Positions 4,665-63,934 of a stretch of DNA of 64,000 nt are shown one piece after another. Position numbers and translations under genes: made by a program. Source of the DNA: an uncultured Cytophagales bacterium (lineage in GTDB: Bacteria > Bacteroidota > Bacteroidia > Cytophagales > Bernardetiaceae); the NCBI GenBank assembly GCA_963761725.1, contig CAVXHP010000006.1, positions 317,534-381,533 on the forward strand, written 5' to 3'. Under the pieces are notes generated by a model. That model had not been told where the DNA came from, did no database searches, and saw only the letters and a list, made by a program, of their open reading frames with translations. Numbering within the stretch: position 1 is the first letter of the stretch; each line of letters opens with the position of its first letter.

Positions 4665-4695
4665 ATAAAATAAAAACATAATTCTGAACCGTTTT

Positions 4696-8412: not shown

Positions 8413-8532
8413 AATCAGTTACCAGTTGAATTTCTTGTATTTTTATTCTCCTCAAACTCTTCTTCCTCTGTGGTTCAAAATTGTATTTCTTGTATTCTCA
8501 TCTTCCTAATTCCCAATCCCCATTCCCTCAAA

Positions 8533-9511
8533 ATGAAATTTTTTCTCCTATTTATTACTTTTTTTCTCGTTCATTTTTCTTCATCTTACGCTTTTTCTTC
8601 TTTTATTTCTAAAAAAGATTCTATCGGATTAGAAAGAAGAGGAAATAATCTGTACATAAAACACAAAGTAACCATTGGTGAAGACATTTATAAAATTGCT
8701 AGAAAATATGGAATAAATAAAGAAACATTAATTACGCTAAACCCAGTTGCTCGTTATCCCTTAAAGGTAAATCAAATTCTGTTTATTCCTCACGCTCAAA
8801 CGAGCTATAGAATTTCTCAATTAAAAGGGTATAAAGTGCGTCCAAGCGAAACGCTTTTTTCAATTGCTTCAAAGTTTCAAACAGATGTAAAGACGCTCAA
8901 AGAACTCAATGAGCTTTATTCTACCCAAATACAAACAGGACAAGAATTACTTATTCCTTATCCAAACAATCATCAAGATTTATACACCATTCCTTCAAAT
9001 GCGTACAGTTCAGCTAAAGACCCAAATACAAAAAATCAGACTCAACACAATTACCATACTAGTAGCCAATGGAGAAACTCTATATTCAATTTCCAAAACT
9101 TATAAAGTAAGTGTAGAGCAATTAAAGAAATTAAATAATAATCCTTCTGGACAAATAAAGGTAGGACAAAAGATAATTGTAGGAGAAGGAGAAGCTACTG
9201 AAGAGGTTTTGATTGTGGCAAGTGCTTCTAGTTTGCAAACGAAAAAAGGAAAACCTCATTCAGAATCAGGTGTCTGTAATGTTACTCTGAATAGTGAACG
9301 TTTGGTAGGAATGCACCGAACTGCACCCAAAGGAACCTTAATCAAAATTCATAATGAAAGCACAGGCAGAACAGTAACCGTAAAAATAATAGGCAAAATT
9401 CAGAATATTGACCGAAATACCAATGTAGTTATTATTATTAGTCACGAAGCTGCACGAAAACTAGGAACGATGAGCAAAGAATTTCCTGTTTATTTGAATT
9501 GGGAAGAATAA
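8533..9511 (+). CDS. secreted LysM-repeat (x3) protein with C-terminal RlpA-like double-psi beta-barrel domain; frame interrupted near 9061
   Basis: Signal peptide MKFFLLFITFFLVHFSSSYA at 8533. LysM motifs: DIYKIARKYGINKETLITLNP, ETLFSIASKF and GETLYSISKTYKVSVEQLKKLN. The RlpA-like HRTAPKGTLIKIHNESTGRTVTVKI...SHEAARKLG region is in a +1 frame. Deleting the A at 9061 (actagta) restores YHTVANGETLYSIS. Confidence 0.65.
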
Positions 9512-11084: not shown

Positions 11085-11107
11085 AATTCGTAATTCGTAA
11101 TTGATCC
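11085..11107. repeat. 'aattcgtaatt' short tandem repeat unit
   Basis: aattcgtaattcgtaattgatcc. The family recurs at 13543, 17565, 17673, 18082 and 37057-37163. Confidence 0.6.
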
Positions 11108-11200
11108 TTAGAGTTTAGAAGTAAGAATTTAGAATGAATATAATGCAGTAATTTGATTTTTCACTTCTTACCTTTATTTCATTCTCTCTATCCTCTTCAA

Positions 11201-11255
11201 CCTCTGTGGTTCAAAAAGAAATTCTAGCCGTTGTTGGTGTCCTCACCAATGACAC
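11201..11255. repeat. cctctgtggttcaaaa motif followed by REP-like hairpin (gccgttgttggtgtcctcaccaatgacac)
   Basis: Both elements recur elsewhere (8465-8480; 7767, 13362, 13416), each time just upstream of a secreted-protein gene. Confidence 0.55.
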
Positions 11256-13542: not shown

Positions 13543-13580
13543 AAATTCGTAATTTTTAATTTTTAATTCGTAATTGATCC
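13543..13580. repeat. 'aattcgtaatt' repeat unit
   Basis: ttaaattcgtaatttttaatttttaattcgtaattgatcc has the same ...cgtaattgatcc end as 11085-11107. Confidence 0.55.
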
Positions 13581-17566: not shown

Positions 17567-17702
17567 TTACGAATTTTCAATTACGAATTACGAATTGAAA
17601 TACAAAAATAAACCTAGTATATTTATCATATATGAAAAACAAAAGCTGATTGAGTATTCATTACTTTACTCTCGTAATTTTTAATTCGTAATTCGTAATT
17701 GA
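17565..17702. repeat. inverted 'aattacgaatt / aattcgtaatt' repeat pair enclosing ~75 bp
   Basis: aattacgaattttcaattacgaattacgaattg at 17565-17597 and ctcgtaatttttaattcgtaattcgtaatt at 17673-17702. The right arm abuts the start codon of the four-helix-bundle gene. Confidence 0.6.
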
Positions 17703-17703
17703 C

Positions 17704-18054
17704 ATGAAAGATAACATTATTCAGAAAAAGAGCTTTGATTTTGCTATCCGAATAGTGAAGGCTTATAAGTTTTTGATTTCTAAACAAGAATATGTTTTGT
17801 CAAAACAATTATTACGTAGTGGAACGTCAATAGGTGCAAATGTAGAAGAAGCTATAGGTGGATATTCTAGAACCGATTTTGGTTTTAAATTATCCATTGC
17901 ATACAAAGAAGCTAGAGAAACACTTTATTGGATTAAACTCTTAAAAGCAACTGACTATCTTTCAGAAGAAATGAGTAAAAGTCTGATTCAAGATGCAGAA
18001 GAAATCTGTAAAATAATTGGCAAAATACAAACTTCTCTAAAGAATAATAAATAA
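17704..18054 (+). CDS. four-helix-bundle protein (23S rRNA intervening-sequence protein family, TIGR02436-like)
   Basis: SFDFAIRIVKAYKFL...QLLRSGTSIGANVEEA....EARETLYWIKLL is the typical signature of this family. The gene is flanked on both sides by cgtaatt repeats. Confidence 0.75.
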   Translation: MKDNIIQKKSFDFAIRIVKAYKFLISKQEYVLSKQLLRSGTSIGANVEEAIGGYSRTDFGFKLSIAYKEARETLYWIKLLKATDYLSEEMSKSLIQDAEEICKIIGKIQTSLKNNK

Positions 18055-18081
18055 AACAACGAAGCTAGTCAAGCTATAGAA

Positions 18082-18122
18082 TTTCGTAATTAAAAATTCG
18101 TAATTGACAATTCGTAATTAAA
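18082..18122. repeat. 'aattcgtaatt' repeat cluster
   Basis: atttcgtaattaaaaattcgtaattgacaattcgtaattaa. Confidence 0.55.
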
Positions 18123-18167: not shown

Positions 18168-19356
18168 ATGAATATAACTACAAAAAATCCAGAAAACCCT
18201 AATTCTAAGGGAAGAGTTTTGGTCGCCATGAGTGGTGGAATTGATAGTTCGTTAGCAGCCGTTTTGTTGCACGAACAAGGTTATGAAGTCATCGGAATGA
18301 CGATGAAAACGTGGGATTATGCTGCTTCTGGTGGCAATATGAAAAAAGAAACAGGCTGTTGTAGTTTGGATTCTATCAATGATGCACGTTCTATTTCGGT
18401 TGATTTGGGTTTCCCTCATTATATTTTGGACATTCGTTCCGAATTTGGCGATTACGTCATCGATTATTTTACAGAAGAATATATGGAAGGCAGAACGCCA
18501 AATCCGTGTGTGCTTTGCAATACGCATATCAAATGGGATGCACTTTTAAGACGTGCCGATAATTTGGGTTGTCAGTATATTGCGACAGGTCATTATGCCA
18601 ATATTAGAGAAGAAGAAGGACGTTTTGTAGTTTCGAAAGGTGTGGATACCAAAAAAGACCAATCGTATGTTTTGTGGGGCGTTTCGCAAGAAAGTTTGAG
18701 CCGAACGATGCTTCCTTTGGGCAATCTTACAAAAGACCAAATCCGTCAAATGGCTTTGGATAGAGGTTTTGATGAGCTTGTCAAAAAATCAGAATCGTAT
18801 GAAATCTGTTTTATTCCAGATAATGACTATCGTAGCTTTTTGAAAAGAAGAGTTCCTGATTTAGAGGAGAAGGTAGGAAAAGGAAATTTTGTAATGACAA
18901 CTGGAGAAGTAGTCGGAAAGCATGAAGGTTATCCATTTTATACTATCGGACAACGAAAAGGATTAGGAATTGCACTTGGACAACCTGCTTATGTAGTTGA
19001 AATTAAAAAAGATACCAATGAGGTAATTTTAGGTTACAAAGATGATTTGTTTAGAGATGGAATGATTGTCAAAAAATTAAACCTTCAAAAATATGCAAAT
19101 ATTGAAGGTGATTTATTGACTACTACAAAAGTTCGTGTCCATCATGCAGGTGCTCCAGCAACCATTACACAAAGCGAAAGACGGACAAGAACTTACTGTT
19201 CTTTTTCACGAGCCTGTAGATGCCATTGCACCAGGACAATCTGCTGTTTTTTATGATGGCGATGATGTAATTGGTGGAGGTTGGATAGTTTCTTCCTTCC
19301 AACAAATTGGAGAACGAACGAATAGAGAAAAATTTGTTTCCTACGGAGGTTTATAA
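18168..19356 (+). CDS. mnmA: tRNA 2-thiouridine(34) synthase MnmA; frame interrupted near 19160-19175
   Basis: VLVAMSGGIDSSLAAVLLHEQGYEVIGMTMKTW PP-loop and CVLCN motif. The C-terminus AKDGQELTVLFHEPVDAIAPGQSAVFYDGDDVIGGGWI is in the +1 frame (ORF 19135..19356). The ORF-track start at 18141 is a TTG; ATG at 18168 is more likely. Confidence 0.85.
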
Positions 19357-19394
19357 GCCTAAGATGGTTTAAATATATAATTCAAAATTGTCAG

Positions 19395-19429
19395 ACCACT
19401 TGATAAAAAAAATATTAAGTGGTTTTTTT
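19395..19429 (+). terminator. rho-independent terminator after mnmA (accacttgat...aagtggttttttt)
   Basis: Hairpin followed by a T7 run. Confidence 0.6.
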
Positions 19430-19507
19430 CTTGAGTATAAATTTTGTATTTTTACTCATTAATTTATCATTTGCTCAAAAAATTAGAATCAATTCTACTA
19501 TAAATCC

Positions 19508-20704
19508 ATGCTAAAAACAGAAGAAGAAAGTCTTACAAATCAAACTTATTTTACAGAACCATTGCAGACAAAAATATCTGTCTGGGATAAATCTGTCAAA
19601 GTGGAAGAAAATGGATATTATTGGAAAAAAGATCCTGTTTTTCAAAAAGGAAGTGATATTTTATCTACAAAACCTAGTGTCGTAGAGTTATTTTGTGGTT
19701 GTGGAGGAACTTCATTAGGTTTTGAAATGGCTGAATTTGAGATTGTATTGGGTTGTGATATTCATACTCCCTCTATACAAACTTTTAAAAAAAACCACCC
19801 TTCTGTTTCAACAATAACAGGAGATATAAAAAATGTTGATCCTAATGTAATTAAAGAATTATTAAATGGTAAAGAGCTTGATGTTCTGATTGGAGGTATT
19901 CCTTGTCAAGGATTTTCATTGAATAATCGTAAAAGACACGAAGATGATGACAGAAATTTTATGTACAAAGAGTTTATGAGATTTGTAGAAATTCTTCAGC
20001 CCAAAGTTGTTGTGTTAGAAAATGTTTCAGGAATGCAAAGTACAGGAAATTTTGTTCATCAGATTGAGGAAGAATTAGGAAAAGTAGCTAAAATGAATGT
20101 AAAAAGTAAACTTCTTTACGCTCCTGATTATGGAGTTCCACAAAGAAGAACTAGACTTGTATTTGTTGGAATTAAAGAACAAGAATTTGATTTTGATAGT
20201 ATTATAAAAACTCATGGAATAGATAAAGATAATCCTTATGTTACAATAAAAGAAGCTATTGGCGATTTACCTTCTCTAAAGCCTAAAGAAACAAAAGAAA
20301 ATTATAAAACAGAGCCTTTTTCTCAATACCAAAAACTAATGAGAAAAGATAAATCGGATAAACTAACTTGTCATACTGCCCCAAATCATCCTAAAAGCAC
20401 AATAGACAGAATTAAGAATACAAAACCAGGCGAACCTATGTATCCAAAATTTAAACAGAGAATTAGGCTAGACTGGGATATACTTAGTCCAACACAAGTT
20501 TCTGGAGGTATTAGACCTCAATTTCAGCTTGGACATCCAGAAGATAATAGAGGATTAACAATTAGAGAACGTTGTAGAATTCAAAGTTTTCCAGATAATT
20601 TTGTAGTAGAAGGTGGAATTGTTCAAGGAAGAGTACAAACAGGAAATGCTGTTCCTCCTTTATTAGCAAAAGCAGTAGCATTAGCAATTAAAAAATATTT
20701 ATAA
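19508..20704 (+). CDS. DNA (cytosine-5)-methyltransferase
   Basis: Motif I ELFCGCGGTSLGF, motif IV GIPCQGFS, motif VI ENV and QRRTR. Confidence 0.85.
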   Translation: MLKTEEESLTNQTYFTEPLQTKISVWDKSVKVEENGYYWKKDPVFQKGSDILSTKPSVVELFCGCGGTSLGFEMAEFEIVLGCDIHTPSIQTFKKNHPSVSTITGDIKNVDPNVIKELLNGKELDVLIGGIPCQGFSLNNRKRHEDDDRNFMYKEFMRFVEILQPKVVVLENVSGMQSTGNFVHQIEEELGKVAKMNVKSKLLYAPDYGVPQRRTRLVFVGIKEQEFDFDSIIKTHGIDKDNPYVTIKEAIGDLPSLKPKETKENYKTEPFSQYQKLMRKDKSDKLTCHTAPNHPKSTIDRIKNTKPGEPMYPKFKQRIRLDWDILSPTQVSGGIRPQFQLGHPEDNRGLTIRERCRIQSFPDNFVVEGGIVQGRVQTGNAVPPLLAKAVALAIKKYL

Positions 20705-21936
20705 TGAAATATAGAATTTGGTACAGTACAGAGAGTTTTGCAGATTTTATTATCGCTAATACAAATCTAAAGAACAAAATATATACAAAGAAAAAAATGT
20801 ATGAAAGTGATGCTAACAACTCTAAAAACTTTCATACAATGCCTGACCACATTAAGAAGATATTATACCTAGATGCACCTGATTTAATTATTGAAATAGA
20901 TCATGAGCCTATTTTTTCAGTAGAAGTATCTACTGAAGCAGGTACAGGACATAATGTTTTTCAAAGATTTGCTCGTCTTGCTGCATCAGTAGAAAATAAT
21001 GTACCTTCTTTTTATATTTACCCAGAAGCTGTCATAATAACAAGACAAAATACTCCCCCAAGATGGGATAAAATAAACCCTCTAATTTTTAAGGCTTTAG
21101 ATGACGTAATGAGTATTTACAAAATACCTTCATTATTTTATTACTTCCCAACAGATTATCAGACAAATCCTAACGCAAATAATTCTAGTAATCTATCAAA
21201 TAAAGGTGTTAAATATGACCAAAATAGAAATTATGCAGGAAGTCCATTAGCAACAGATTCAGAAATGCAACTCATGTTTTCTGCTATGAATGAAATTATT
21301 GATGTAGTAGAAAACCAAGGAGTAATTAGAGGAAGAGAAAATCTATTGAGTAAACGAATTATGATAGATAGAAGAACTTTTATGAATCAAGAATTTATAG
21401 CTAAAGGAGGCACAATGAATACTTCTCCATTATCTGCAACCTTAAAAATTTCAACTCAATATTTATTGAATTACTTGAGAAAACATGAAAATAGGCAGTA
21501 TCAAATAGGAGAATTACTTAAAAGTAGAGATGAAACAATCATCTATAAAGTAGATGCAAAGTTTAGAGGTGATCCTTATCCTGGTGCTTTGGCTGCCATC
21601 GATTATTTATTATGTCGTGAAGGTAAATCATTTGAAGAAAGAAAATACAATTTAGTTATGGTTTGGGGAAATCTTACGATTGATGATGTAAACAAAACAC
21701 TAAATATTACAAGTACAAAAAGTACAATCAATGATTTTGTAACGTCAGTTCAAGCAAGTGAAAACAAAAATATTTTATCAAAAGAATACAATCAATTATC
21801 AAATCAAGAAATTCCTAGATACTACATGCAAGTGAGATATGGTTCAACTTACTCTAAAGTAAAACATATTAGAGTATATTCTTATTTTGCTGATGCAATT
21901 TTATTTCCTGATGGTGCTCTATGGAGAGATGCGTAA
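20704..21936 (+). CDS. putative type II restriction endonuclease (partner of the m5C methyltransferase)
   Basis: Start overlaps the methyltransferase stop (ATGA). 410 aa with no known family. Has an LDAPDLIIEID...EVSTE region. The call rests mainly on context. Confidence 0.4.
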   Translation: MKYRIWYSTESFADFIIANTNLKNKIYTKKKMYESDANNSKNFHTMPDHIKKILYLDAPDLIIEIDHEPIFSVEVSTEAGTGHNVFQRFARLAASVENNVPSFYIYPEAVIITRQNTPPRWDKINPLIFKALDDVMSIYKIPSLFYYFPTDYQTNPNANNSSNLSNKGVKYDQNRNYAGSPLATDSEMQLMFSAMNEIIDVVENQGVIRGRENLLSKRIMIDRRTFMNQEFIAKGGTMNTSPLSATLKISTQYLLNYLRKHENRQYQIGELLKSRDETIIYKVDAKFRGDPYPGALAAIDYLLCREGKSFEERKYNLVMVWGNLTIDDVNKTLNITSTKSTINDFVTSVQASENKNILSKEYNQLSNQEIPRYYMQVRYGSTYSKVKHIRVYSYFADAILFPDGALWRDA

Positions 21937-22130
21937 TGAGAGAAGAACAAATAACAAAAAACATACTGGATTGGCTAGAAGAAAATGATTGGTTTATTAT
22001 CTGTTACGATTTTCCACAAAGTGGTACTGGAATTATGTTGCATCAAAATATAGCACATAGAGTTTCAAAAAATAAAGGTGGAATTATTCCAGATATAATC
22101 GCTGTAAAATCAAATAGCTTTATTTTTTGA
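21921..22130 (+). CDS. small ORF, possible nuclease remnant (GGIIPDIIAVK)
   Basis: 69 aa, overlaps the end of the putative endonuclease gene and ends near the island's right junction. The PD..K-like motif is reminiscent of Vsr/PD-(D/E)xK. Speculative. Confidence 0.2.
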   Translation: MERCVMREEQITKNILDWLEENDWFIICYDFPQSGTGIMLHQNIAHRVSKNKGGIIPDIIAVKSNSFIF

Positions 22131-22423
22131 AAATAAAGATAGATTTTATCAATTTGATTTTGACAAACTTCATAGAAATAAAAACTCAACAAAATTATTC
22201 TGAATCTCTTGCTAGTTTACTCTCAAAATAATTTACAAATTTATTATGGTATTGAATTGATAAAGCAAAAGAAATAGATAAAGCATTAAATCATTTAAAG
22301 TAATTAGGTCAAAGTCTGATTACAGACTATTGACAAAGCTCAAGTAATTTTTACATAAAAAACACATGCAACTATGGCACTAACAGAACAAGAAATTGAA
22401 AAAATAATCGTTCGTTACATAAT

Positions 22424-22502
22424 TTCCTTCCAGCAAATTGGAAACGAACGAATAGAGAAAAATTTGTTTCCTACGGAAGTTTATAAGCCTAAAGTGGTTT
22501 AA
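22424..22502. repeat. diverged direct-repeat copy of the mnmA 3' end (matches 19293-19372, ~76/81 identical)
   Basis: tttccttccagcaaattggaaacgaacgaatagagaaaaatttgtttcctacggaagtttataagcctaaagtggtttaag versus the authentic mnmA end. Confidence 0.85.
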
Positions 22503-22552
22503 GATTTTGATTACTGAATAGTTTACTTTTAGTAAACTGTTTGGTATTTTTA

Positions 22553-22590
22553 TAATAACAAAAAAAGGACAATGTGTAGATTGTCCTTTT
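22553..22590. terminator. bidirectional rho-independent terminator (aaggacaatgtgtagattgtcctttttt)
   Basis: Hairpin with an A-run upstream and a T-run downstream. Sits downstream of the minus-strand gpx gene. Confidence 0.6.
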
Positions 22591-31159: not shown

Positions 31160-32392
31160 TTATTGTAATTTTTTACCTAATTCAAATGCTTTTACATACG
31201 CTTCTTCTAAGTTAGCGTCGCTCATGTTAGTAAAGACGAGTACTCCAATTTTGGTAACAGGGTCAAAAGCCATTTCTGTACTTGTTCCTTGTTCGCCTCC
31301 ATTGTGTCCCCAAAGACCTAAACTTTCATTTTGAAGGAACATGTGTAATCCCATTGCTCCGTCAAGATTTGGCACTTGTTTTTTGAGCATTTCTGTAACT
31401 GTTGTAGCTTTCAGAAGTTGATAGCCATTGTATGTTCCTCCGTTTGCAATAGCAGCAGCAAATTTTGCCATTTCTCTAGGTGTTGTACGCAATCCACCAT
31501 TTGGATAATCTGGGAAGGTATAATGATCCACTTTTGAGAAGTTACCACCTTCTAATTCATACGGTTGAACAATCGTTCCTGTAATTCCACTTAATTTCCA
31601 ACTTGTAGCAGTCATTCCTAGAGGAGTAAAAATATTCTCTCTCGTATAATCCGTAAAACTTTTACCCGAAATTTCTGCTACCAAAACTCCAATAAGAGCC
31701 GAACCTGCATTTGAATAATTAAACTGTGTTCCCGGTGCTGCATCTGCAAAATTAGCATCTGCATCATAACGAGAACCACCTACTTTGAGGTAACTTTCCA
31801 TAAATGGTTTTAATTCAAGAGGAGTATCTCCACCAAATGTATAATTGCCATACAAATTTTCTCCGTCCTTAATAGAAGATGTATGAGTCAGTATCATACG
31901 GAAAGTAATTGGAATACTAGAGTTAGGATTAACAACAGGGAAAGAAAGATAATCATTGATTGGGTCATCTAAATCAAATTTGCCTTCATCATACAAACGA
32001 AGCAATGCAACACCTGTAACCGTTTTTGAAATAGAAGCAATCAAGAATAAATGGTCATTTGCTAAAGCTAAATTTTGTTCAACATTAGATTTTCCATAAT
32101 AACCTTCGTGCAAGATTTGGTCGCCTTTGAAAATAATTGCACCAACGGCAGGAAGTTTTTGAGAAGACATTTGAGCAGCTATAAAGTCATCAAATGCTTT
32201 TTTGTCTTGACTGGCTTGGTCTGTTCCACCACCAGTGCCTCCACCTGTGCCTCCTCCTCCTGTGTCAGGATCAGGATCAGTAACATCTACATCAGGTTCT
32301 GGCTCGCTATCTCCTCCACAACTTGAAAGAGAGATTGAAAAAGTGAGTAATAAGCTCAATAAGAATAACAAAGAGAATTTTGAAATATTCAT
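31160..32392 (-). CDS. beta-lactamase-family serine hydrolase lipoprotein
   Basis: SxxK motif ASISKTVTG. Lipoprotein signal LSSCGG. Gly/Thr-rich linker GGGGTGGGTGGGT. Confidence 0.8.
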   Translation of the reverse strand: MNISKFSLLFLLSLLLTFSISLSSCGGDSEPEPDVDVTDPDPDTGGGGTGGGTGGGTDQASQDKKAFDDFIAAQMSSQKLPAVGAIIFKGDQILHEGYYGKSNVEQNLALANDHLFLIASISKTVTGVALLRLYDEGKFDLDDPINDYLSFPVVNPNSSIPITFRMILTHTSSIKDGENLYGNYTFGGDTPLELKPFMESYLKVGGSRYDADANFADAAPGTQFNYSNAGSALIGVLVAEISGKSFTDYTRENIFTPLGMTATSWKLSGITGTIVQPYELEGGNFSKVDHYTFPDYPNGGLRTTPREMAKFAAAIANGGTYNGYQLLKATTVTEMLKKQVPNLDGAMGLHMFLQNESLGLWGHNGGEQGTSTEMAFDPVTKIGVLVFTNMSDANLEEAYVKAFELGKKLQ

Positions 32393-32630
32393 AATAAATA
32401 GTTTTAAATTAAATAAAGTTAGCGTTTAAATAAAACCTTATATGTCTTTTCAGAATGACTAATACATTTTTAATCGGTATAAAAACTAATAAAAAACAAA
32501 GACTAGATAAGGTTACAGTTGTATAAATTGTGAAAAATAATTTTCTTTTTAGAGGGATAAATGTCAAGTAGTCCTCAATAAACTTACTAGCCTATAGTTT
32601 ACACTAAATAAATTCATTGAGATAACTATT

Positions 32631-33809
32631 TTATTGGACTTTTTTACCTAGCTCAAATCCTTTTATATAAATTTCCTGTGTTTCAATATCTTCAACATTT
32701 GTAAAGACAATAATTCCAATTTTAGTAACTGGGTCAAAGACAGCATCTGTACTTGTTCCTTCTTCTCCTCCATTATGCCCCCAAAGTCCTAGAGATTCTT
32801 CTTCTAAAGACATGTGAAACCCCATAGTTGGGTCAAGAGGAGTTTGTGGAGTGTACATCATTTTTGCCGTTGCTGGTTTCAAAACTTGATAACCATTATA
32901 CGAGCCATCATTCATAATGGCATTCAAGAAATTAGAAAATTCTCTAGGAGTTGTGCGTAATCCTCCATTTGGATAATCAGGCATTGTATAATGTTCTATT
33001 TTCACAAAATTACCGTCTTCTACTTTATAAGGCTGTACAATCGTTCCCGTAATTTCGTCTAATCTCCAACTTGTTTTGTTCATTCCTAAAGGAGAAAATA
33101 TAGTTTGTCTTGTATAAGCTACAAAACTTTGATTAGAAATTTGTTCTACCAAAACACCGATAAGAGCAGAACCTGCATTAGAATACTCAAATTTTGTCCC
33201 TGCTGCTTGTTCTAAAAAATTATTTGAATTATAAAGAGAACCTCCTACGGCAAGATAACTTTCCATAAAATCTTTCAACTGAATAGGTGTATCTGACCCA
33301 AAATTATAAACAAACAACTCATCTGTATCTGCAATAGAAGAAGTATGAGTGAGCAACATTCTGAAAGTAATCGGTGTAGTATGATTCGGAACATTAACTC
33401 TAAAAGGTAGATAATCATTGATTGGGTCATCTAATCCAAACTTTCCTTCATCATATAGACGAAGAAGAGCAGCTCCTGTAACAGTTTTGGAAACCGAAGC
33501 AACCAAAAATAAATGGTCTTTGGTTAGGTTGATATCTTGTTCTAAACTCGCCTTTCCATAGTATTTTTCATGAAGAATTTGATTACCCTTAAAAACCAAA
33601 ACACCCATTGCAGGTGTGCCTTGTGATTTCATTTCAGAAACTACATAAGCATCAAAGGCATTTTTGTCCGTTGCATTTGGATCACTTGGGTCGTTTGGCT
33701 CAACAACTACATTATTTTCAGGAACTGGATCTTCTCCCCCACAACTGGAAAGTGAAAATGTAAACAGTAAGGCTAAAAGAAATAGCACAGGAAATTTAAT
33801 GATTTTCAT
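32631..33809 (-). CDS. beta-lactamase-family serine hydrolase lipoprotein (tandem paralogue)
   Basis: ASVSKTVTG SxxK motif. Collinear similarity to the 31160..32392 product throughout. Confidence 0.8.
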   Translation of the reverse strand: MKIIKFPVLFLLALLFTFSLSSCGGEDPVPENNVVVEPNDPSDPNATDKNAFDAYVVSEMKSQGTPAMGVLVFKGNQILHEKYYGKASLEQDINLTKDHLFLVASVSKTVTGAALLRLYDEGKFGLDDPINDYLPFRVNVPNHTTPITFRMLLTHTSSIADTDELFVYNFGSDTPIQLKDFMESYLAVGGSLYNSNNFLEQAAGTKFEYSNAGSALIGVLVEQISNQSFVAYTRQTIFSPLGMNKTSWRLDEITGTIVQPYKVEDGNFVKIEHYTMPDYPNGGLRTTPREFSNFLNAIMNDGSYNGYQVLKPATAKMMYTPQTPLDPTMGFHMSLEEESLGLWGHNGGEEGTSTDAVFDPVTKIGIIVFTNVEDIETQEIYIKGFELGKKVQ

Positions 33810-47886: not shown

Positions 47887-48116
47887 TAAGCTATGTCCTG
47901 CCGTCCCCTCGTTAAGCGTAGTCTGCGACTACGATTTATCAGTTTGGCAAATCTTAGATTTGCGAGTAGATGTATTTCTGTTGCAAGTGGGAATTAGATT
48001 TTGAGATAATACAACTTTTATACTATTAATTTCGTATATTTGTATAAAAATAGTAACCGAAGTCGTTTTAAGGCGTGAGTAATTGGGTTTTAGGACATAA
48101 TTACGTCGGTTCTTTT

Positions 48117-48248
48117 TTAAAGTTCCTTTATAAAGTCTTCAAAAGTTTGTAGTTTTCTTCCTTCTTTGCGAGCTTGTTTTACTTCTAAAACAGCCTCTTT
48201 TATTCCCTGCAAAACTTTCTCTTTGTTACGTTGTTTTTTGCTTTTCAT
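48117..48248 (-). CDS. small basic protein (43 aa), antitoxin-like C-terminal pattern (...KQARKEGRKLQTFEDFIKEL)
   Basis: Not in the ORF track (<60 aa). Start overlaps the last 7 codons of the 140-aa gene in another frame. A homologous copy at 49869..50009 is conserved at protein level. Confidence 0.4.
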   Translation of the reverse strand: MKSKKQRNKEKVLQGIKEAVLEVKQARKEGRKLQTFEDFIKEL

Positions 48249-48648
48249 CTTGATTTAGGGTTGATTTTTTGACTATTTTACTTCTGAAAAATAATATTAA
48301 TTCTTTAAATTCCTCGTGTCTTTTTAGAGCTTCTTCCATATTTGTAGCAGGTTTTCTGTCTGCTTTTAGTTCTTCAAAACTGGAATATTTTGTAAGCGTT
48401 CCGTTTTTGAATTGTGCCAGTATTTTTCTTTTGTTCGTAAATTCTCCTGTATAAATCAACGTTATTTTATCAAAATCCTTAGTTTTTTCACGTCCTATAT
48501 AACAAACCTCTTTTTTATCTTTGCTATGAAACAAAGGGATTCCTTCCACTACTTCAAGTTTGCTCTCGTCCATAACAGGATTTCCAAGTAAAACCCACTC
48601 ATTCGGATAAAGTGTTTTTATCTCTACGATATTTATTTGTTTTTTCAT
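48226..48648 (-). CDS. two-domain hypothetical protein (copy 1 of duplicated module)
   Basis: 140 aa. ~90% identical to the 49999..50409 product. The C-terminal ~55 aa also exist as a stand-alone ORF immediately upstream. Confidence 0.5.
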   Translation of the reverse strand: MKKQINIVEIKTLYPNEWVLLGNPVMDESKLEVVEGIPLFHSKDKKEVCYIGREKTKDFDKITLIYTGEFTNKRKILAQFKNGTLTKYSSFEELKADRKPATNMEEALKRHEEFKELILFFRSKIVKKSTLNQDEKQKTT

Positions 48649-48809
48649 GTTGATTTTTTTGAAATTGTTTTTTCAATTCTTTTACTTTGAAAAAAGTGTA
48701 TCAATTCTTTAAATTCTTCGTGTCTTTTTAGAGCTTCTTCCATATTTTTAGTAGGTTTTGCATCTGCTTTAAGTTCTTCAAAACTTGAAAATCGTTTTAA
48801 TTTATTCAT
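48645..48809 (-). CDS. stand-alone copy of the C-terminal domain of the 140-aa protein (54 aa)
   Basis: MNKLKRFSSFEELKADAKPTKNMEEALKRHEEFKELIHFFQSK aligns with residues ~86-130 of the 140-aa protein. Its stop overlaps the 140-aa start (ATGA). Confidence 0.35.
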   Translation of the reverse strand: MNKLKRFSSFEELKADAKPTKNMEEALKRHEEFKELIHFFQSKRIEKTISKKST

Positions 48810-48825
48810 AATTATATAACGGTTT

Positions 48826-49032
48826 TTACTTTCTTAAAATTCTATGTTTATTTTTTTCCCACCAATTTATATTGATTTCTCTACTTAATTTATCAACATC
48901 TTCTTGTGTTGCTTTTATATTTTGGGTTAATTGGCAATATTCAATATAATTTACAAGTCGTTCTAACGCCTCTAAATCTGCCGTATCAGGAACTCTTAGT
49001 ACAAACTCATTTCCTTGTTTTTCAATATTCAT
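48826..49032 (-). CDS. small hypothetical protein (68 aa), first gene of the minus-strand four-gene unit
   Basis: Preceded by a promoter-region repeat that is also found upstream of module copy 2. Confidence 0.35.
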   Translation of the reverse strand: MNIEKQGNEFVLRVPDTADLEALERLVNYIEYCQLTQNIKATQEDVDKLSREININWWEKNKHRILRK

Positions 49033-49219
49033 TTTTTATAATTTTAAGTGAAAAATATAATTTCGTAGTATATTTATAATCAACGTGAAAATTGATTTTT
49101 AAGTTTGAATAATCTTATTATTTGAAGAAGGTTTTTTTGTGAGCAATCAAACCTTTTTAGCTGTTTCTTACGTTTTAATATAGAAGAAATCAATAATTTA
49201 CCTTTAATTTTTTTAAAAT

Positions 49220-49432
49220 ATGAGTACCCAAGAACGAGTAGAACAAATTCGTAATTTAGCTACACAATTATCAGAAGCAGAACAAGAAGCATTTAGAAAA
49301 GCAATGGAACGACAGGTTATGATGGCAGAAGCACAACAATTAAGTAAAGGAACAAAAGCAACAATCACATTAGAGGAAATCGTAAAAGAAGTAAATGTAG
49401 TTAGAGAAGAGCGTTACCAAAGAGGAAAATAA
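49220..49432 (+). CDS. putative antitoxin (partner of the PIN toxin)
   Basis: 70-aa charged helical protein immediately upstream of a PIN-domain gene. Confidence 0.45.
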   Translation: MSTQERVEQIRNLATQLSEAEQEAFRKAMERQVMMAEAQQLSKGTKATITLEEIVKEVNVVREERYQRGK

Positions 49433-49461
49433 TAAGAAAAATAATAAGGAAAATAATTTTT

Positions 49462-49857
49462 ATGCAACATATTATTTTAGATACAAATATTTGGTTGAGT
49501 TATATTATTACGAAAAAATTACCTGATTTGGTAAGTTTAATTTATTCCAATAATTTGATTTTGTATGGTTCTGATCCACTTTACGACGAACTGAAAGAAG
49601 TATTAGGAAGAAAAAAGTTTGAAAAATATTTAGAATTTTCTATTGAGGAATATGTAGCTTTTCAAAAACGACTTACCAAAAAAGTAGATACCGAGAAAAT
49701 ATTTATAGGCTCGCCAGACCCAAAAGATGATTTTTTGTTTGATTTGGCTAATCAATCTGATGCAACTCATTTGGTTACAGGAGATAAAAATATTTTAGAG
49801 TTTAGTTATCCTCCTTTAAAAATTATTTCTTTTGCAGAGTTTAGAAATTCGTTTTGA
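49462..49857 (+). CDS. PIN-domain toxin (VapC-like)
   Basis: MQHIILDTNIWLSY...DELKEVL...DFLFDLANQSDATHLVTGDK carries the conserved PIN acidic residues. Confidence 0.7.
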   Translation: MQHIILDTNIWLSYIITKKLPDLVSLIYSNNLILYGSDPLYDELKEVLGRKKFEKYLEFSIEEYVAFQKRLTKKVDTEKIFIGSPDPKDDFLFDLANQSDATHLVTGDKNILEFSYPPLKIISFAEFRNSF

Positions 49858-49868
49858 TTAAAAAAAGT

Positions 49869-50009
49869 CTACTCATTTTCAAGTTCTTTCAGAAAATCCT
49901 CTAAAGTTTTTAATTGTCTACCTTCTTTACGAGCTTGTTTTACTTCTATAATTGACTCTTTCAATTCTTTTAAAATTCTCTCCTTGTTACGTTGTTTTTT
50001 ACTTTTCAT
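49869..50009 (-). CDS. small basic protein (46 aa), copy 2
   Basis: MKSKKQRNKERILKELKESIIEVKQARKEGRQLKTLEDFLKELENE. Overlaps the 3' end of the 136-aa gene. Confidence 0.4.
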   Translation of the reverse strand: MKSKKQRNKERILKELKESIIEVKQARKEGRQLKTLEDFLKELENE

Positions 50010-50409
50010 CTTGATTTAGGGTTGATTTATCAATTCTTTTACTTTGAAAGAAGCGTATTAATTCTTTAAATTCTTTGTGTCTTTTTAGAGCTTCTTCCAT
50101 ATTTGTTGCAGGTTTTCTGTCTGCTTTAAGTTCTTCAAAACTGGAATATTTTGTAAGTGTACCGTTTTTTAATTGTGCTAGTATTTTTCTTTTGCTTGTA
50201 AACTCTCCTGTATAAATCAACGTTATTTTATCAAAGTCCTTAGTTTTTTCACGTCCTATATAACAAACCTCTTTTTTGTCTTTGCTATGAAACAAAGGGA
50301 TTCCTTCCATTACTTCAAGTTTGCTTTCGTCCATAACGGGATTTCCAAGTAAGACCCACTCATTTGGGTAAAGTGTTTTTAATTCTGCTATATTTATTTG
50401 CTTTTTCAT
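49999..50409 (-). CDS. two-domain hypothetical protein (copy 2 of duplicated module)
   Basis: 136 aa, ~90% identical to the 48226..48648 product. Confidence 0.5.
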   Translation of the reverse strand: MKKQINIAELKTLYPNEWVLLGNPVMDESKLEVMEGIPLFHSKDKKEVCYIGREKTKDFDKITLIYTGEFTSKRKILAQLKNGTLTKYSSFEELKADRKPATNMEEALKRHKEFKELIRFFQSKRIDKSTLNQDEK

Positions 50410-50572
50410 ATAGATTCTTTTTAAAAGTGTATTGTAAAATTAACGTAGAAATTAGGTTTTAAGTTTGAATAATTTATTATTTGAAGAAGGTTTTTTTGTG
50501 AGTAATCAAACCTTTCTGTATAGGTTGCACGTTATTGAAGTAAGAATTTAATAAAATCTAAAATAGAATAGT

Positions 50573-56819: not shown

Positions 56820-58125
56820 ATGCGTTTACATCGTAATTTAGTTTTGGCTGTTATCGAATCTCTTTCTCAAATTTTTAATCAAAAAAAACAGGCTGATAAA
56901 ATTGTAGCCATTACTCTAAAACAAGACAAACGCTGGGGCGCAAGAGATAGAAGTTTTGTAGCCGAAACCATTTACGAAATTGTGCGATGGAAACGTTTGT
57001 ATGCAAAATTAGCAGGAATAGAAGAAGCCTATCAAAATGATACTTATTCTACTCAAAATCTATTTCAACTCTTTTCTATTTGGGCAATCTTAAATGAAAT
57101 TGAACTGCCAACTTGGGAGGAATTTGAAGTAATTAATGATGAAAAAATAAATGAGATAAAACAAAATTATACTCAGCTTCAAGAAATCCGAAAATTTAAA
57201 GAATCTATTCCCGATTGGTTAGATGATTTGGGAAAAACAGAGCTAGGAAATGAAACTTGGACGAAAGAAATAGCTGCACTCAATAATCAAGCTCCTGTTG
57301 TTTTGCGTGTAAATACCTTAAAGACAAGTATATCAAAACTTCAAAAGCAGCTTTCAGAACAAAATATCAGAACTGAAAAAATTACTGAAAAAGTTACTCA
57401 AAATAATACAGATTATCCAGAAGCACTTCAGTTAGTAGAACGAAAAAGTATTGTCAGAAATGCTTTGTACAAAGATGGCTTTTTCGAAATTCAAGATGCT
57501 TCTTCACAGCTTATTGCTCATTTTTTAGACTTAGAAAATGACGATAAAAATAATACTAAAAAAGGCTTACAAATCATTGATACCTGTGCAGGTGCAGGAG
57601 GAAAATCGCTTCACATTGCTTCTCTTTTGCAAAATAAAGGACAGATAACAGCAATGGATATTTATGAAAACAAACTCATTGAACTAAGAAAAAGAGCCAA
57701 CCGAGCAGACGTTCATAACATCAAAACGCATACTATAAAAAGAGAAGGACAGAGAATTAATTATAATCAATTTAGTCAGTTTCATAATTCGGCTGATAGA
57801 GTTTTGATAGATGCGCCTTGTAGTGGTTTGGGTGTTTTGAGTAGAAATCCTGATGCAAAATGGAAACTTAGTCTTGCCTTTTTGGAAGAAATAAAACAAA
57901 CTACAGCAAAACATTCTACAAGAATATTCTAAAATGACAAAAAAAGGAGGAAAATTAGTTTATGCAACGTGTTCTATTCTGCCTTCTGAAAATCAAAAGC
58001 AAGTAGAAATATTTTTGAATAGTGAAAATGGAAAGGCTTTTAAATTTATTGAAGACAAAAAAATTCTTTCTCATCAGACTGGGTATGATGGGTTTTATAT
58101 GGCTTTGTTGGAGAAAAATAAATAG
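56820..58125 (+). CDS. Sun/RsmB-family RNA m5C methyltransferase; frame interrupted at ~57898-57900
   Basis: IIDTCAGAGGKSLHIA, RVLIDAPCSGLGVLSRNPDAKWK and LVYATCSILPSEN. Removing one A in aaacaaacta restores ...EEIKQLQQNILQEYSKMTKKGGKLVYATCS. Confidence 0.75.
58058..58125. repeat. 3' end of the rsmB-like gene that is duplicated at 59608-59675 (left copy of ~67 bp direct repeat)
   Basis: About 61/67 identical to the right copy. Confidence 0.8.
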
Positions 58126-58157
58126 TATTTGTTGTAACTTGATAAAAAAAACATCTA

Positions 58158-59600
58158 ATGAAAAAATCAATTATTTGGACTCTCTTTTTTATAATTTTAG
58201 CAGGAATTATTTCTTTAGTATTCATTTCAGATGAACCTATGGATGAATCAGAGAAATATATCAACATTGAAAAAAGGATTGGTAAAAATGAAATGGTAGC
58301 TGATATTGATAGTATTGTCTCGTTTTTTGAAAGTGTACACCCCAAACCGTATCGATTCCAAACCAAAGAACAACTTACCAATTTGTTAGCGTCTAAAAAA
58401 CAGACTTTACCTGATAGTTTAGAACTGATTAATTTTTGGCGTTTGGTAGATGAGCTATTGTGTAATTATGATGATGCACATTCTTATGCTAAAGATTTTT
58501 ATGTTTTGACAGATTATGTCCAAAAAGGAAAGCTCTTTTTTCCTTTGTCAGTCAAGATTCAAGATGACAAATTCTTCGTTTCTGAAACTGATTCTTCCTA
58601 TATCTCTCTAAAAAAAGGAACTCAAATAACAAATATAAACGGAGTTGAGGTAACAGAGTTAATTAATCAATTATCCAAACATTGTAGTAAAGAAACAAAG
58701 ACTTTGGACGTACTAGAAATCTCTGAAGATTTTGGGTTTTATCTTTGGAAAGCCTACGATTGGGATAAAGATTTTGAAGTTTTTTATCTACCAGATAGTA
58801 ATGCTACAAAGATTGATTCTATAAAAATTGAAGGTATCAAATGGGAAGATAGAAAGGTTATAACGAAGAATAATTCTTCTTTTTCTTTTGAGTTTTTGAA
58901 AAATAATCAAGGATACATGAAAATAACTGATTTTAATGGAGATAGAGATGAAATAAATGATTTTTATGAAAAATCATTTAATAAAATGAAAGAAAAACAA
59001 ACTCAAAACCTAATTCTTGATTTTAGAGGACATAGTGGAGGATCAGACCAATACGGAGAAGACTTAGCAAAATATATTGCTACCAAACCTTTCAAAAAGC
59101 TTTCAAAAGCCTATTGGAAAATCACACCAGAGTTTAAAAATGCCTTTGATAGAAAATTTGTTCCTAAAGGAATTCAATGGTTTGAGCCTATTTATTTAAT
59201 CAATGAGTATTCTGAAAATTTTTATGGTGCAAATACTTATGATTCTGTAATTGTCGAATATGAACTGAAAGAACCTCTACCAAAAGAAAAGCGTTTTTTA
59301 GGAAATGTTTATTTAATTACTGACCATAACACATTTTCGGCAGGTTCTATCTTTGCAGAAATGTTTAAATATTATAACTTGGGGACTGTTGTGGGGCAGC
59401 CTACTGGAAATTTATGCTCTTTTAGTGGCTTTGCTCTTTCAGAATATGTTTTACCAAATTCAAAACTGTCTTTTCAAGTTTCTTCGGTGTATAATTTATC
59501 CAACAATAAAGAAGAGGGTTTGAAGACTGTAGAACCAACTATTTTTGTACCGTATTCTGAAAACCCTATTGATTATATTTTGAATAATCTGATAGAGTAA
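58158..59600 (+). CDS. S41-family (C-terminal processing/tail-specific) peptidase-like protein with N-terminal TM anchor
   Basis: NLILDFRGHSGG resembles the S41 LIIDLRxNxGG core. Length 480 aa. Confidence 0.65.
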   Translation: MKKSIIWTLFFIILAGIISLVFISDEPMDESEKYINIEKRIGKNEMVADIDSIVSFFESVHPKPYRFQTKEQLTNLLASKKQTLPDSLELINFWRLVDELLCNYDDAHSYAKDFYVLTDYVQKGKLFFPLSVKIQDDKFFVSETDSSYISLKKGTQITNINGVEVTELINQLSKHCSKETKTLDVLEISEDFGFYLWKAYDWDKDFEVFYLPDSNATKIDSIKIEGIKWEDRKVITKNNSSFSFEFLKNNQGYMKITDFNGDRDEINDFYEKSFNKMKEKQTQNLILDFRGHSGGSDQYGEDLAKYIATKPFKKLSKAYWKITPEFKNAFDRKFVPKGIQWFEPIYLINEYSENFYGANTYDSVIVEYELKEPLPKEKRFLGNVYLITDHNTFSAGSIFAEMFKYYNLGTVVGQPTGNLCSFSGFALSEYVLPNSKLSFQVSSVYNLSNNKEEGLKTVEPTIFVPYSENPIDYILNNLIE

Positions 59601-59607
59601 ACTTCTA

Positions 59608-59675
59608 AAAATTCTCTCTCATCAAACAGGTTATGATGGATTTTATATGGCTTTGTTGGAGAAAGAATAAAGTAA
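59608..59675. repeat. right copy of the ~67 bp direct repeat derived from the rsmB-like 3' end
   Basis: aaaattctctctcatcaaacaggttatgatggattttatatggctttgttggagaaagaataaagtaa. Confidence 0.8.
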
Positions 59676-59681
59676 TAAAAA

Positions 59682-60464
59682 ATGACTCAAAAAATCTTCC
59701 CAAAATCTCTAACTCAAGAAATCTCAAAAAACACAGGCAGACGTTTTGCTATCAGCGATATTCATGGCTGTGGCAAAACGTTTATTTATTTAGTAGAAGA
59801 TATTTTAAAACTCACAAAAGACGACCAACTTTTTGTTTTGGGAGATTTAATAGATAGAGGAAAAAATGCAATTCTTTTGATAGATTATATCCTAGAAAAA
59901 CAAAAAGAAGGCTATCCCATTTTTATTTTGATGGGCAATCACGAACAAATGCTTTTAGATTTTTATGAGCAAAATAATTTCCAATTATCAAAGAAAACAT
60001 TAGCTCACAATCATTTAGAAGAATTAATCAATAAAGACAGAGAAATCAAACCCAAGTATGCAGCTTTTTTTGAAAGTATGCTTTTTTATATTGAGTTAGA
60101 AAATTGCTTTTTGGTTCACGCAGGTTTTGATGTAAATTATGAACCTCTTAATGGAGAAGACCTTTTTACAAATGCCTATGCGATGCTTTGGACAAGGAAA
60201 TTTAAAGGAAATCTATACAAGACAAATCAAAAACCTGTCGTTCACGGACATGTAGTACATAATCTAAAAGAAATAAAAGAAAATCTAAGGCTAGCAAAAC
60301 AGAACAAAACGGCAATTGTTCCGATTGATAACGGTTGTGTTTATGTGAGTTTGGGAAAATATCAGAAATATAAAGGAGAAATAGGAAATCTTTGTGCAAT
60401 AGAACTCACAGAAAAAAATAATACATGGGAGCTTTTTTATACGCCTTTTCGGGATAAAAACTAA
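59682..60464 (+). CDS. PPP-family serine/threonine phosphatase / metallophosphoesterase (ApaH-like)
   Basis: RFAISDIHGC, VLGDLIDRG and GNHEQM motifs. Confidence 0.75.
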   Translation: MTQKIFPKSLTQEISKNTGRRFAISDIHGCGKTFIYLVEDILKLTKDDQLFVLGDLIDRGKNAILLIDYILEKQKEGYPIFILMGNHEQMLLDFYEQNNFQLSKKTLAHNHLEELINKDREIKPKYAAFFESMLFYIELENCFLVHAGFDVNYEPLNGEDLFTNAYAMLWTRKFKGNLYKTNQKPVVHGHVVHNLKEIKENLRLAKQNKTAIVPIDNGCVYVSLGKYQKYKGEIGNLCAIELTEKNNTWELFYTPFRDKN

Positions 60465-62994: not shown

Positions 62995-63934
62995 ATGATT
63001 AGTGTTGTAATGCCTGTTTTTAATGGAGAAAAATTTCTTAAAATAGCTATTGAAAGTATTTTGAACCAAACTTATACAGATTTTGAATTAATCATTATCA
63101 ATGACGGTTCAACTGACAAAAGTGCAGAAATTATAAAATCCTATACAGACAATCGTATTCGTTTTTTGGAAAATGAAGGAAACAGAGGCATTTTTTATAC
63201 TCGTAATCGTCTTTTTGAAGAAGTAAAAGGAAAGTATATTGCCATTTTGGATTGTGATGATTATGCCGAACCAAAACGACTAGAAAAGCAAGTTAATTTT
63301 CTGGATAAAAATAATGAGTTTGGTTTAGTAGGTTCTTGGATTACACTTATTGATGGCGAAAACAAAATAAAAGGAGCTTGGAATTTGGAATATAGACCAG
63401 AGCGAATCTCTTCAAAATTATTGTTTTCGAATCAGTTTGCACAATCTTCTGTCATGATGCGAAAAGAGTTTTCTGATTTAAAATATAGAGAAGAATATCC
63501 TCCAGTAGAAGATTATGACCTTTGGGTGCGTATTTCTTACAAAACAAGAGTAACAAATCTTGCCGAAACGTTAGTAAAATATAGAATTCACGACCAAAAT
63601 ATTAGTCAAACACAAGCAGAAAAAGCTAGAGAAAAATGTATTTAAAATATATAAAAATCAATTAGAAAAATTGGGAATTTATGCTACTCAAGATGACCTA
63701 ATTATTCACCAAAAAGCTGGAAATTTAGATTTTCAGCAGAATAATGACTTACTTTTTGAAAAAACAAAAAATTGGTTAGAATTACTTCATTTTAAAAATG
63801 AGCAAATTGAATTTTATAACACAATGGTATTCAATGAAATTTTAGGCGAGTTTTGGGCAGAACTTTTATCCAAAAATCTTGAAATCTCTACTTCTAAAAT
63901 AGCTTTTATCACTCTCCTTTGTCTTCATATCTAA
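62995..63934 (+). CDS. family-2 glycosyltransferase; frame probably interrupted near 63600-63640
   Basis: ISVVMPVFNGEKFLKIAIESILNQTYTDFELIIINDGSTD and a DxD-like LDCDDY. The 87-aa ORF 63671..63934 is open in the +1 frame from ~63602 and reads like a GT C-terminal region. Confidence 0.7.

Follow-up and report, generated by a model that had tools for sequence, protein, structure and literature searches.

How a lone gene for an S41-family peptidase came to stand between rsmB and its phosphatase neighbor, and why a second copy of the rsmB 3' end lies on its far side, is the question raised by a locus of an uncultured Cytophagales bacterium of the Bernardetiaceae (GenBank assembly GCA_963761725.1). 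The analyzed stretch, hereafter the window, comprises 64,000 nt of contig CAVXHP010000006.1 (positions 317,534 to 381,533, forward strand); coordinates are those of the window unless they follow the L number of a comparison locus. Within it, rsmB is followed in turn by the S41 gene, a displaced rsmB tail, and a metallophosphoesterase gene (Table 1). The S41 gene is an insertion, and we propose, with a probability of about 0.55, that recombination with the DNA of a related Bernardetia-type lineage brought it in, without a transposon or an integrase.

Table 1. Coordinates of the rsmB and mnmA loci and of the frameshifts in the window
Feature	Position	Strand	Evidence
rsmB, 16S rRNA m5C967 methyltransferase family, upstream target gene	56820..58125	+	Pfam and NCBIfam RsmB matches
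Repeat copy 1, functional 3' tail of rsmB (…KILSHQTGYDGFYMALLEK…)	58059..58122	+	Repeat search, BLASTN
Remnant (TATTTGTTGTAACTTGAT) of rsmB-MP205 intergenic sequence	58126..58143	+	Motif match after rsmB stop in relatives
Cargo, intact S41-family peptidase gene, 480 aa, hydrophobic N-terminus	58158..59600	+	Pfam PF03572, E=8e-20
Repeat copy 2, displaced untranslated rsmB tail (…KILSHQTGYDGFYMALLEKE, stop), still joined to phosphatase start	59607..59671	+	Repeat search, BLASTN
Metallophosphoesterase (ApaH/PrpE-like) gene, ancestral immediate downstream neighbor of rsmB	59682..60464	+	Pfam Metallophos
mnmA case, copy 1: mnmA 3' tail (…SFQQIG, one extra G, NERIEKNLFPTEVYKPKMV, stop)	19291..19372	+	Repeat search
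mnmA case, cargo: terminator-like hairpin, C5 DNA methyltransferase, 410-aa gene, 88-aa ORF	19373..22422	+	Pfam DNA_methylase, E=3e-67
C5 DNA methyltransferase of mnmA insert	19508-20704	+	Pfam DNA_methylase, E=3e-67
410-aa gene of mnmA insert, without Pfam match, putative restriction endonuclease	20704-21936	+	
Frameshifted 88-aa ORF of mnmA insert	21936-22210	+	
mnmA case, copy 2: displaced mnmA tail (…KPKVV, stop), then ancestral mnmA terminator	22423..22565	+	84-86% to L172/L171
Frameshift positions	57897-57905 (rsmB); 19172; 19313; 22125; ~9070; 63629-63645		

The two tails form an ungapped direct repeat of 58 nt (58059-58116 and 59607-59664; 53/58 identical, 91%) at a spacing of 1548 nt, which BLASTN extends to 58059-58122 and 59607-59671 (59/65, one gap, E=3.9e-19 in a 1.5-Mb database); BLASTN found no third copy within the 64-kb window. 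A first-pass annotation, made from the letters of the window and its open reading frames (ORFs), had reported this duplicated rsmB 3' end at 58058-58125 and 59608-59675 (~61/67), and alignment confirms it to within a few bases. It had also described the copies as bracketing a single-gene S41 insert, and one intact ORF does lie between them; the two ORFs that it had called spurious, 58022..58234 and 59633..59857, are present as well and cross the copies in another frame. The true end of rsmB is copy 1, whose translation runs to KILSHQTGYDGFYMALLEKNK and the stop codon. Copy 2 reads KILSHQTGYDGFYMALLEKE and a stop codon; its translation was rejected, since it has no start codon and an in-frame TAG stands upstream at 59593-59595. 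The S41 gene begins 32 nt past the rsmB stop and ends 6 nt ahead of copy 2, and a further 10 nt separate the end of copy 2 from the start codon of the metallophosphoesterase gene. The identity of rsmB itself is given by a match to Pfam Methyltr_RsmB-F. The genome is low in GC and falls in the Bernardetia/Flexibacter group; the loci closest to its rsmB are those of Flexibacter sp. CG and Bernardetia spp. (83-88% protein identity), and full-length RsmB orthologs of 416-431 aa are 72-88% identical to the window protein. In the window the gene is broken into ORFs of 370 and 63 aa by a 1-nt insertion near 57897-57905, a base missing in nine orthologs, and the deposited protein set holds RsmB in its truncated 370-aa form.

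The comparison set for rsmB consisted of 13 related loci; the related loci, those of mnmA included, were chosen for their content of the same two genes, so that the sample gives no per-genome rate of events. In L168/L169 (RsmB 84% identical) the order HisK, accC, rsmB, 13 nt, phosphatase, EI24 and DivIVA (the last two on the minus strand) matches both flanks of the window without the S41 gene, and in L170, the most divergent relative (RsmB 77% identical), rsmB is followed after 9 nt by the phosphatase gene. In L168, which has the rsmB tail once, the empty site (TAA CAGTACAAAAAAA ATG CTTCAAAAAATCTACCC) is colinear with copy 2 of the window and its spacer (TAA AGTAATAAAAA ATG ACTCAAAAAATCTTCCC), and the S41 gene is present at 0/13 of the related loci. 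The empty sites in L168/L169 and L170 show that the S41 gene was inserted between its two neighbors. The first-pass annotation had claimed as much, and had proposed looking for relatives with rsmB directly before the phosphatase, which these loci turn out to be; its description of an insertion into the 3' end of rsmB does not hold, however, as rsmB keeps a complete tail and the cargo lies past the stop codon.

The polarity could in principle be reversed, with the rsmB-S41-tail-phosphatase arrangement being old and the S41 gene having been lost from L168 and L170 by recombination between the tails. Repeat-flanked inserts are easily deleted in a way that restores a single tail, and sequence alone cannot polarize empty sites. 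Such a history nevertheless appears very unlikely: the absence of the S41 gene from all 13 related loci extends to lineages with quite different downstream genes, no S41 homolog above 60% identity was found, the direct rsmB-phosphatase junction is common to L168 and the most divergent L170, and secondary loss would still require an insertion with duplication at its origin.

The match of the cargo to PF03572 (71.4 bits against a cut-off of 24) covers residues 252-462, and the protein search returned 50 homologs besides the window's own protein, 46 of them full-length (453-513 aa) and none more than 60% identical, so that nothing qualified as a donor or a close relative. The best homolog, at 60% identity, sits in an unrelated context, and the contexts of two homologs (L081 and L082) are unrelated to rsmB and lack flanking repeats. 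Close relatives of the S41 gene were not found on plasmids (at most 25% amino-acid identity) or on phages. A foreign base composition was considered and rejected: both GC content and GC content at third codon positions equal those of the neighboring genes, which fits a related donor. From rsmB through the S41 gene to the phosphatase gene, no terminator-like site was found on the plus strand, and the S41 gene is most likely transcribed as part of the unit formed by its two neighbors.

The sequences on either side of the insert point to two different gene orders. In L004, L163, L164, and L173, rsmB is followed by a conserved gene for a membrane protein of 205-210 aa (MP205; 66-85% identity among loci). 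A motif of ~17 nt, TTTRTTGTAAC(T)TAAC, stands right after the rsmB stop in L001/L083, L002, L004, L163, L164, and L173, lineages in which the phosphatase gene is not the direct neighbor of rsmB, and is absent from L168, from L170, and from the sequence after copy 2 in the window. After copy 1, by contrast, the window carries this motif (~18 nt; 12/13 positions as in L164, counted by eye), and the S41 gene comes next. We considered the motif as a possible end of a mobile element and rejected this, because L004, L163, and L164 have homologous 205-210 aa genes behind rsmB and the motif is thus ordinary intergenic sequence. Copy 2, for its part, leads into the spacer and start codon seen where rsmB stands directly before the phosphatase gene. 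The locus is therefore a composite, with an rsmB-MP205-type arrangement on the left, a direct rsmB-phosphatase arrangement on the right, and one tail from each.

This architecture is not confined to one gene or one genome. Among 161 Bacteroidota rsmB loci, a second downstream rsmB tail occurs only in the window and in L003, the chromosome of Bernardetia sp. OM2101, whose record is titled “complete genome.” There (L003 11241-12125) a gene for a 241-aa lipoprotein-like product follows rsmB and is itself followed by a second rsmB tail of 30-43 nt (…GFYMAILEKI, stop); an unannotated 172-aa gene begins 10 nt past this tail. Outside Bernardetia, 155 other Bacteroidota loci gave chance-level matches, and two of them, L114 and L133, were inspected and dismissed. 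Dispersal of the repeat to loci unconnected with a gene end, which the first-pass annotation had named as evidence against its account, was looked for in the window and at these loci and not seen: the repeat has two copies in the 64 kb, no stray copies of the rsmB tail occurred across the 161 rsmB loci, and on this sample the repeat does not look like a dispersed family.

The second target gene is mnmA. In the window, its last ~82 nt (19291-19372) are repeated at 22423-22502, bracketing a restriction-modification (RM) pair whose cargo includes the hairpin resembling a terminator and is absent from L171 and L172. Taken with its terminator, copy 2 shows 84-86% identity to the corresponding mnmA ends of L172 and L171, terminators included, and L172 is an empty site in which mnmA is directly followed by its own terminator. 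Orthologous MnmA proteins terminate in …SFQQIGNERIEKNLFPTEVYKPKVV, and the displaced copy retains an ortholog-like KPKVV ending; it lies within a 42-aa ORF beginning with ATG, whose translation we judged fortuitous. As at rsmB, foreign sequence lies past copy 1 and the ancestral sequence, here the terminator, past copy 2. In L171 (8117-8890), from a Bernardetia metagenome-assembled genome (MAG) whose assembly is shared with L002, a 159-aa gene follows mnmA and is accompanied by a duplication of ~127 nt spanning the tail and terminator. The left edges of the two mnmA inserts differ, falling straight after the stop codon in the window and after the terminator in L171, and the duplicated lengths vary by event (65 and 30-43 nt at rsmB; ~82 and ~127 nt at mnmA). 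A scan of the window and 12 related loci for more displaced tails yielded paralog pairs and the known cases only. The pattern is recurrent in the Bernardetia lineage, with four events at two target genes and four different cargoes, which upholds the first-pass suggestion of a recurring process whose cargo extends beyond RM genes.

At least six one-base frameshifts interrupt conserved genes of the window (rsmB, mnmA twice, the RM-linked ORF, a LysM-repeat protein split into ORFs 8470..9105 and 8909..9511, and a GT2 glycosyltransferase split into 216 and 87 aa where L004 has 357 aa), and most likely represent assembly indel errors. That rsmB and mnmA are pseudogenes linked to the insertions is unlikely, since the frameshifts are spread over unrelated genes. 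It might be argued that an indel-rich, metagenome-derived assembly has joined two strains into a chimera, the more so as the repeat copies resemble two alleles. We find this extremely unlikely. The same architecture is present in the “complete genome” of Bernardetia sp. OM2101 and in the independent MAG that contributes L171; a chimeric join would be expected at shared sequence, not at a gene tail placed after the stop of an unrelated gene; and two such joins within 64 kb are not to be expected.

Aligned over 57 coding nucleotides, the two rsmB copies disagree at five positions (CTT/CTC, CAG/CAA, ACT/ACA, GGG/GGT, and GGG/GGA), all of them synonymous and at third positions (S=11, N=46 sites). 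Had copy 2 drifted neutrally after a duplication in place, about two thirds of the differences should be non-synonymous, and a result of 0/5 has P=0.0035. The mnmA pairs show synonymous to non-synonymous ratios of 3:1 in the window and 3:0 in L171, where the coding differences (GTT/GTG, AAA/AAG, and TAA/TAG) are all synonymous; pooled, the three pairs have 12 differences, 11 of them synonymous (P=4.4e-5). The L173 rsmB tail resembles copy 1 (55/58) more than copy 2 does (53/58), and copy 2 matches L164 at 54/58 and both L163 and L002 at 53/58, as close as or closer than its agreement with copy 1. Since the displaced copies have no obvious translation and the differences are nearly confined to synonymous positions, what the pattern says is that both members of each pair would have evolved as working gene ends, that is, in different genomes. 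This fits one copy having arrived with the cargo from a relative.

The first-pass annotation had spoken of a target duplication, a term implying that the insertion machinery copied one resident target. In such a history a break-and-fill or transposition-like process would have cut the rsmB tail at widely staggered positions, inserted the S41 gene, and copied the resident tail, the copies starting out identical and diverging later. The structure is that of the published insertions with long target duplication; the copies share a lineage-restricted Tyr codon and an identical 24-nt core (TTTTATATGGCTTTGTTGGAGAAA), and the window also carries a case of the classic RM type. Duplication in place nonetheless leaves the near-absence of non-synonymous change (0/5 at rsmB, 1/12 over the three pairs) at odds with its expectation and does not explain why the rsmB-MP205 motif of other lineages follows copy 1. 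Each copy also has an ortholog elsewhere that is as close as its supposed partner or closer, and the two junctions belong to different alleles of the region downstream of rsmB. We consider duplication in place unlikely, with some residual weight, and the term target duplication does not suit the locus well.

In the reading we prefer, the recipient would have resembled L168 and L170, with about 11 nt between rsmB and the phosphatase gene, and the donor would have carried rsmB, then the start of the rsmB-MP205 intergenic sequence, then the S41 gene. Incoming DNA would pair with the resident chromosome through its own rsmB copy, serving as a homologous anchor, and its far end would be joined illegitimately ~65 nt upstream of the resident rsmB stop, a process known as homology-facilitated illegitimate recombination (HFIR). 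An equivalent route is conceivable in which a circularized fragment, comprising the rsmB tail and the S41 gene, would integrate through one crossover of the Campbell type within that tail. The product would be the same in both cases: a complete rsmB with copy 1, the cargo, and copy 2 fused to the translation start of the phosphatase. On this view neither copy was made from the other in situ; they would be orthologs of one 60-65 nt stretch, drawn from two lineages. The insert, its duplicated flank, their recurrence, the lack of mobility genes among the proteins scanned, the divergence at synonymous sites alone, and the composite junctions are read directly from the sequences; we infer the route of recombination, which of the copies the donor supplied, and the co-transcription of the new gene. 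Selection probably explains why products of this kind are seen: with ~10 nt between rsmB and the phosphatase gene, the duplication leaves intact both the C-terminus of RsmB and the stretch just ahead of the phosphatase start codon.

The rsmB gene itself may record exchange between lineages. Along its length (56820-58125, 10 orthologs), the best-matching lineage shifts, with 150-nt windows reaching 96-97% against a background of 82-90%, in the order L002, L173, L164 (97%), L001 (96.5%), L163 (97%), and then L173 again. This suggests that homologous exchange between lineages may be frequent at the locus.

Several points weigh against this reading. The same sliding comparison with 10 orthologs, examined for a recombination breakpoint inside rsmB, gave a mosaic and not a single clean switch. 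A donor genome with the order rsmB, motif, S41 was not found, and the illegitimate junction and any microhomology at it are unreadable. The informative sites are few, 5 in the rsmB pair and 12 in all, and the margins by which a copy is closer to an ortholog are of 1-2 nt; the one-base indels between the rsmB copies (…GAGAAA-AAT and GAGAAAGAAT; GGAGAAC and GGAAAC) are unreliable, indel errors being numerous in the assembly. A Tyr codon (TAT) common to both rsmB copies is missing in nine related loci and present in L173, L168, and L170, and the copies therefore do not come from distant lineages. At mnmA, the starts of the displaced copies in the window and in L171 fall within ~2-3 nt of each other despite different cargo; such coincidence is unexpected for independent illegitimate joins, and hints at a shared slot in which cargo is swapped, or at a preferred site. 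Finally, natural competence, transformation, and HFIR are not known from Bernardetia, and the mosaic along rsmB is only an indirect sign that the host takes up and recombines DNA.

The nearly coinciding starts of the displaced mnmA copies would be accommodated by site-specific integration of cassettes without an integrase of their own, a tyrosine or serine recombinase supplied from elsewhere acting on an att site in the rsmB and mnmA tails, with an attP that mimics the tail, in the manner of elements that target tRNA genes or gene 3' ends. The same two genes have been struck repeatedly with differing cargo, and a mimic of a coding tail borne by an element would likewise differ from it at synonymous positions only. 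This is distinctly unlikely in our estimation. Pfam detected neither integrase nor transposase domains in 29 proteins of the two inserts and their surroundings, a scan that covered about half of the window ORFs. Further, the duplicated length at rsmB differs twofold between the window and L003, with different boundaries; the left edges of the two mnmA inserts do not agree; and no common motif was visible by eye among the four junction pairs. An integrase-bearing element is not supported for the S41 insert, which is a single gene with S41 as the only domain found. A transposon or insertion sequence was rejected as well, there being no transposase, no terminal inverted repeats at the ends of the S41 insert, and a repeat that is 58-65 nt long and 9% diverged; a site scan likewise found promoter and terminator matches not to be in excess.

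A bolder extension of homology-anchored acquisition would have gene tails act as portable attachment sites that need no recombinase, a passive cassette system docking at the ends of housekeeping genes. Cargo between two versions of a tail (30-130 nt) could loop out as a circle carrying one tail, and the circle could re-enter a relative by a single crossover in the same tail, mediated by the host RecA, recreating the flanked structure. If true, this would explain slots with a shared boundary and different cargo, such as mnmA in the window and L171, and would provide a general mechanism for insertions with long target duplication, left hypothetical by the 2010 survey (PMC2853133). We regard the proposal as doubtful, with a small chance of being right.

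Three known processes resemble what is seen here. The first is Campbell-type insertion-duplication, a standard laboratory method in which a non-replicating circle with a short homology integrates and duplicates that homology on either side. Its topology is exactly that observed at our locus; it is known, however, as an engineered outcome, and natural single-gene circles carrying the tail of a relative are hypothetical here. The second is the integration of integrase-bearing elements into the 3' ends of tRNA or protein genes, which yields attL and attR. There too a replacement tail keeps the target intact and the repeats measure tens of bases; the S41 insert differs in being a single gene without an integrase, with repeat boundaries that vary between events. 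The third is HFIR, reportedly the subject of studies by de Vries and Wackernagel in 2002, by Prudhomme and coworkers in 2002, and by Meier and Wackernagel in 2003. Composite junctions of two alleles, and copies that differ as orthologs do, are features expected of its products, and both are seen at the S41 locus. HFIR has been invoked for displaced 3' regions and orphan immunity genes at type VI secretion system (T6SS) and Rhs loci (Kirchberger et al., 2017, PMC5361080). At those loci, as we propose here, a conserved upstream gene serves as a one-sided anchor, the old downstream part is shifted and not deleted, and no dedicated recombinase is required. The differences are that the pieces displaced at T6SS and Rhs loci are variable toxin tips or immunity genes at dedicated polymorphic loci, whereas the present cases involve 30-130 nt tails of housekeeping genes and cargo unrelated to the anchor gene.

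In structure the locus belongs with insertions with long target duplication, a class that was reported for Helicobacter RM genes, then extended to several phyla, and has been cataloged chiefly for RM systems (Nobusato et al., 2000, Gene 259:99; Furuta, Abe and Kobayashi, 2010, NAR 38:2428, PMC2853133). The 2010 survey characterizes the class by repeats above 30 bp, an absence of mobility genes, and repeats that often overlap the 3' end of the upstream gene—by 2-15 bp in the examples from H. influenzae (PMC2853133). The screens described there required both R and M genes as cargo, and the mechanism was hypothetical and tentatively tied to a property of RM systems such as double-strand breakage (PMC2853133). 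The S41 insert shares the structure of the class: an empty site exists in a relative, the repeats (58-65 nt) exceed 30 bp and correspond to one copy of the target, and no mobility gene was found in or next to the insert. It departs in its cargo, an S41 peptidase in place of RM genes (with a lipoprotein-like gene and a 159-aa gene in relatives), and in its phylum, Bacteroidota not being represented among the species named in the portions of the survey at hand. It departs further in that its copies diverge in the style of coding sequence, which points to a donor-borne tail and not the copying of a target. The RM insert at mnmA, its endonuclease being putative, appears to be a textbook member of the class.

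What is new here is the non-RM cargo, the examples from Bacteroidota, and the codon-position evidence that one repeat copy was imported. This moves the explanation away from something specific to RM genes and toward ordinary recombination, anchored by homology, between relatives whose gene orders differ. Scoring the codon positions at which repeat copies differ is a simple test that lends itself to large-scale use, and displaced gene tails are predicted to mark such imports, and to hint at donor lineages, in any genome. In practical terms the gain is modest: short “spurious” ORFs and pseudo-tails could be annotated better, and hotspots of gene gain in Cytophagales would be easier to trace.

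Other repeats and inserts were observed near the genes discussed above and elsewhere. Downstream of rsmB in L167 (8519-11860; Bernardetia sp. ABR2-2B), three copies of a 45-80 nt repeat separate gene modules that include a Y1 (IS200-like) transposase; these may be repetitive extragenic palindromic (REP)-like elements. Upstream of rsmB, a 1076-aa fused RM-like (type IIG-like) gene lies between accC and rsmB in L001 (1682-4912; Flexibacter sp. CG MAG), with no flanking duplication detected; accC and rsmB are adjacent in the window. Close to mnmA, the window has a 116-aa “23S rRNA intervening sequence protein” gene (17704-18054) between the DUF6952 gene and mnmA, flanked by 36-nt direct repeats rich in TTCGTAATT (17669-18109) and missing from that position in L171 and L172; further copies of this repeat lie at 13544-13579 and ~11083-11110. 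A DUF5694 gene (3754-4602) is flanked by homologous terminator-like hairpins at 3605-3652 and 4623-4670 (AAAATCCATT…AATGGATTTT, 83%), which may represent another insertion that duplicated an upstream terminator, or simply a common terminator type. An intergenic repeat of 40 nt (…CCTCTGTGGTTCAAAA, 80%) occurs at 8441-8480 and 11177-11216, 2.7 kb apart, upstream of two different genes. The regions 31160-33809 and 48115-50500 hold a tandem pair of paralogous ~400-aa genes (71-76% nucleotide identity) and, as a separate cluster, repeated segments of 130-300 nt around small genes, including one for a PIN-domain protein. Lastly, in Mariniflexile (L013 18223-19068) an 80-nt repeat (94%) flanks a 161-aa membrane protein gene beside a 433-aa putative HipA-like gene; the repeat resembles a 5' regulatory region that was duplicated, rather than the tail of a gene.

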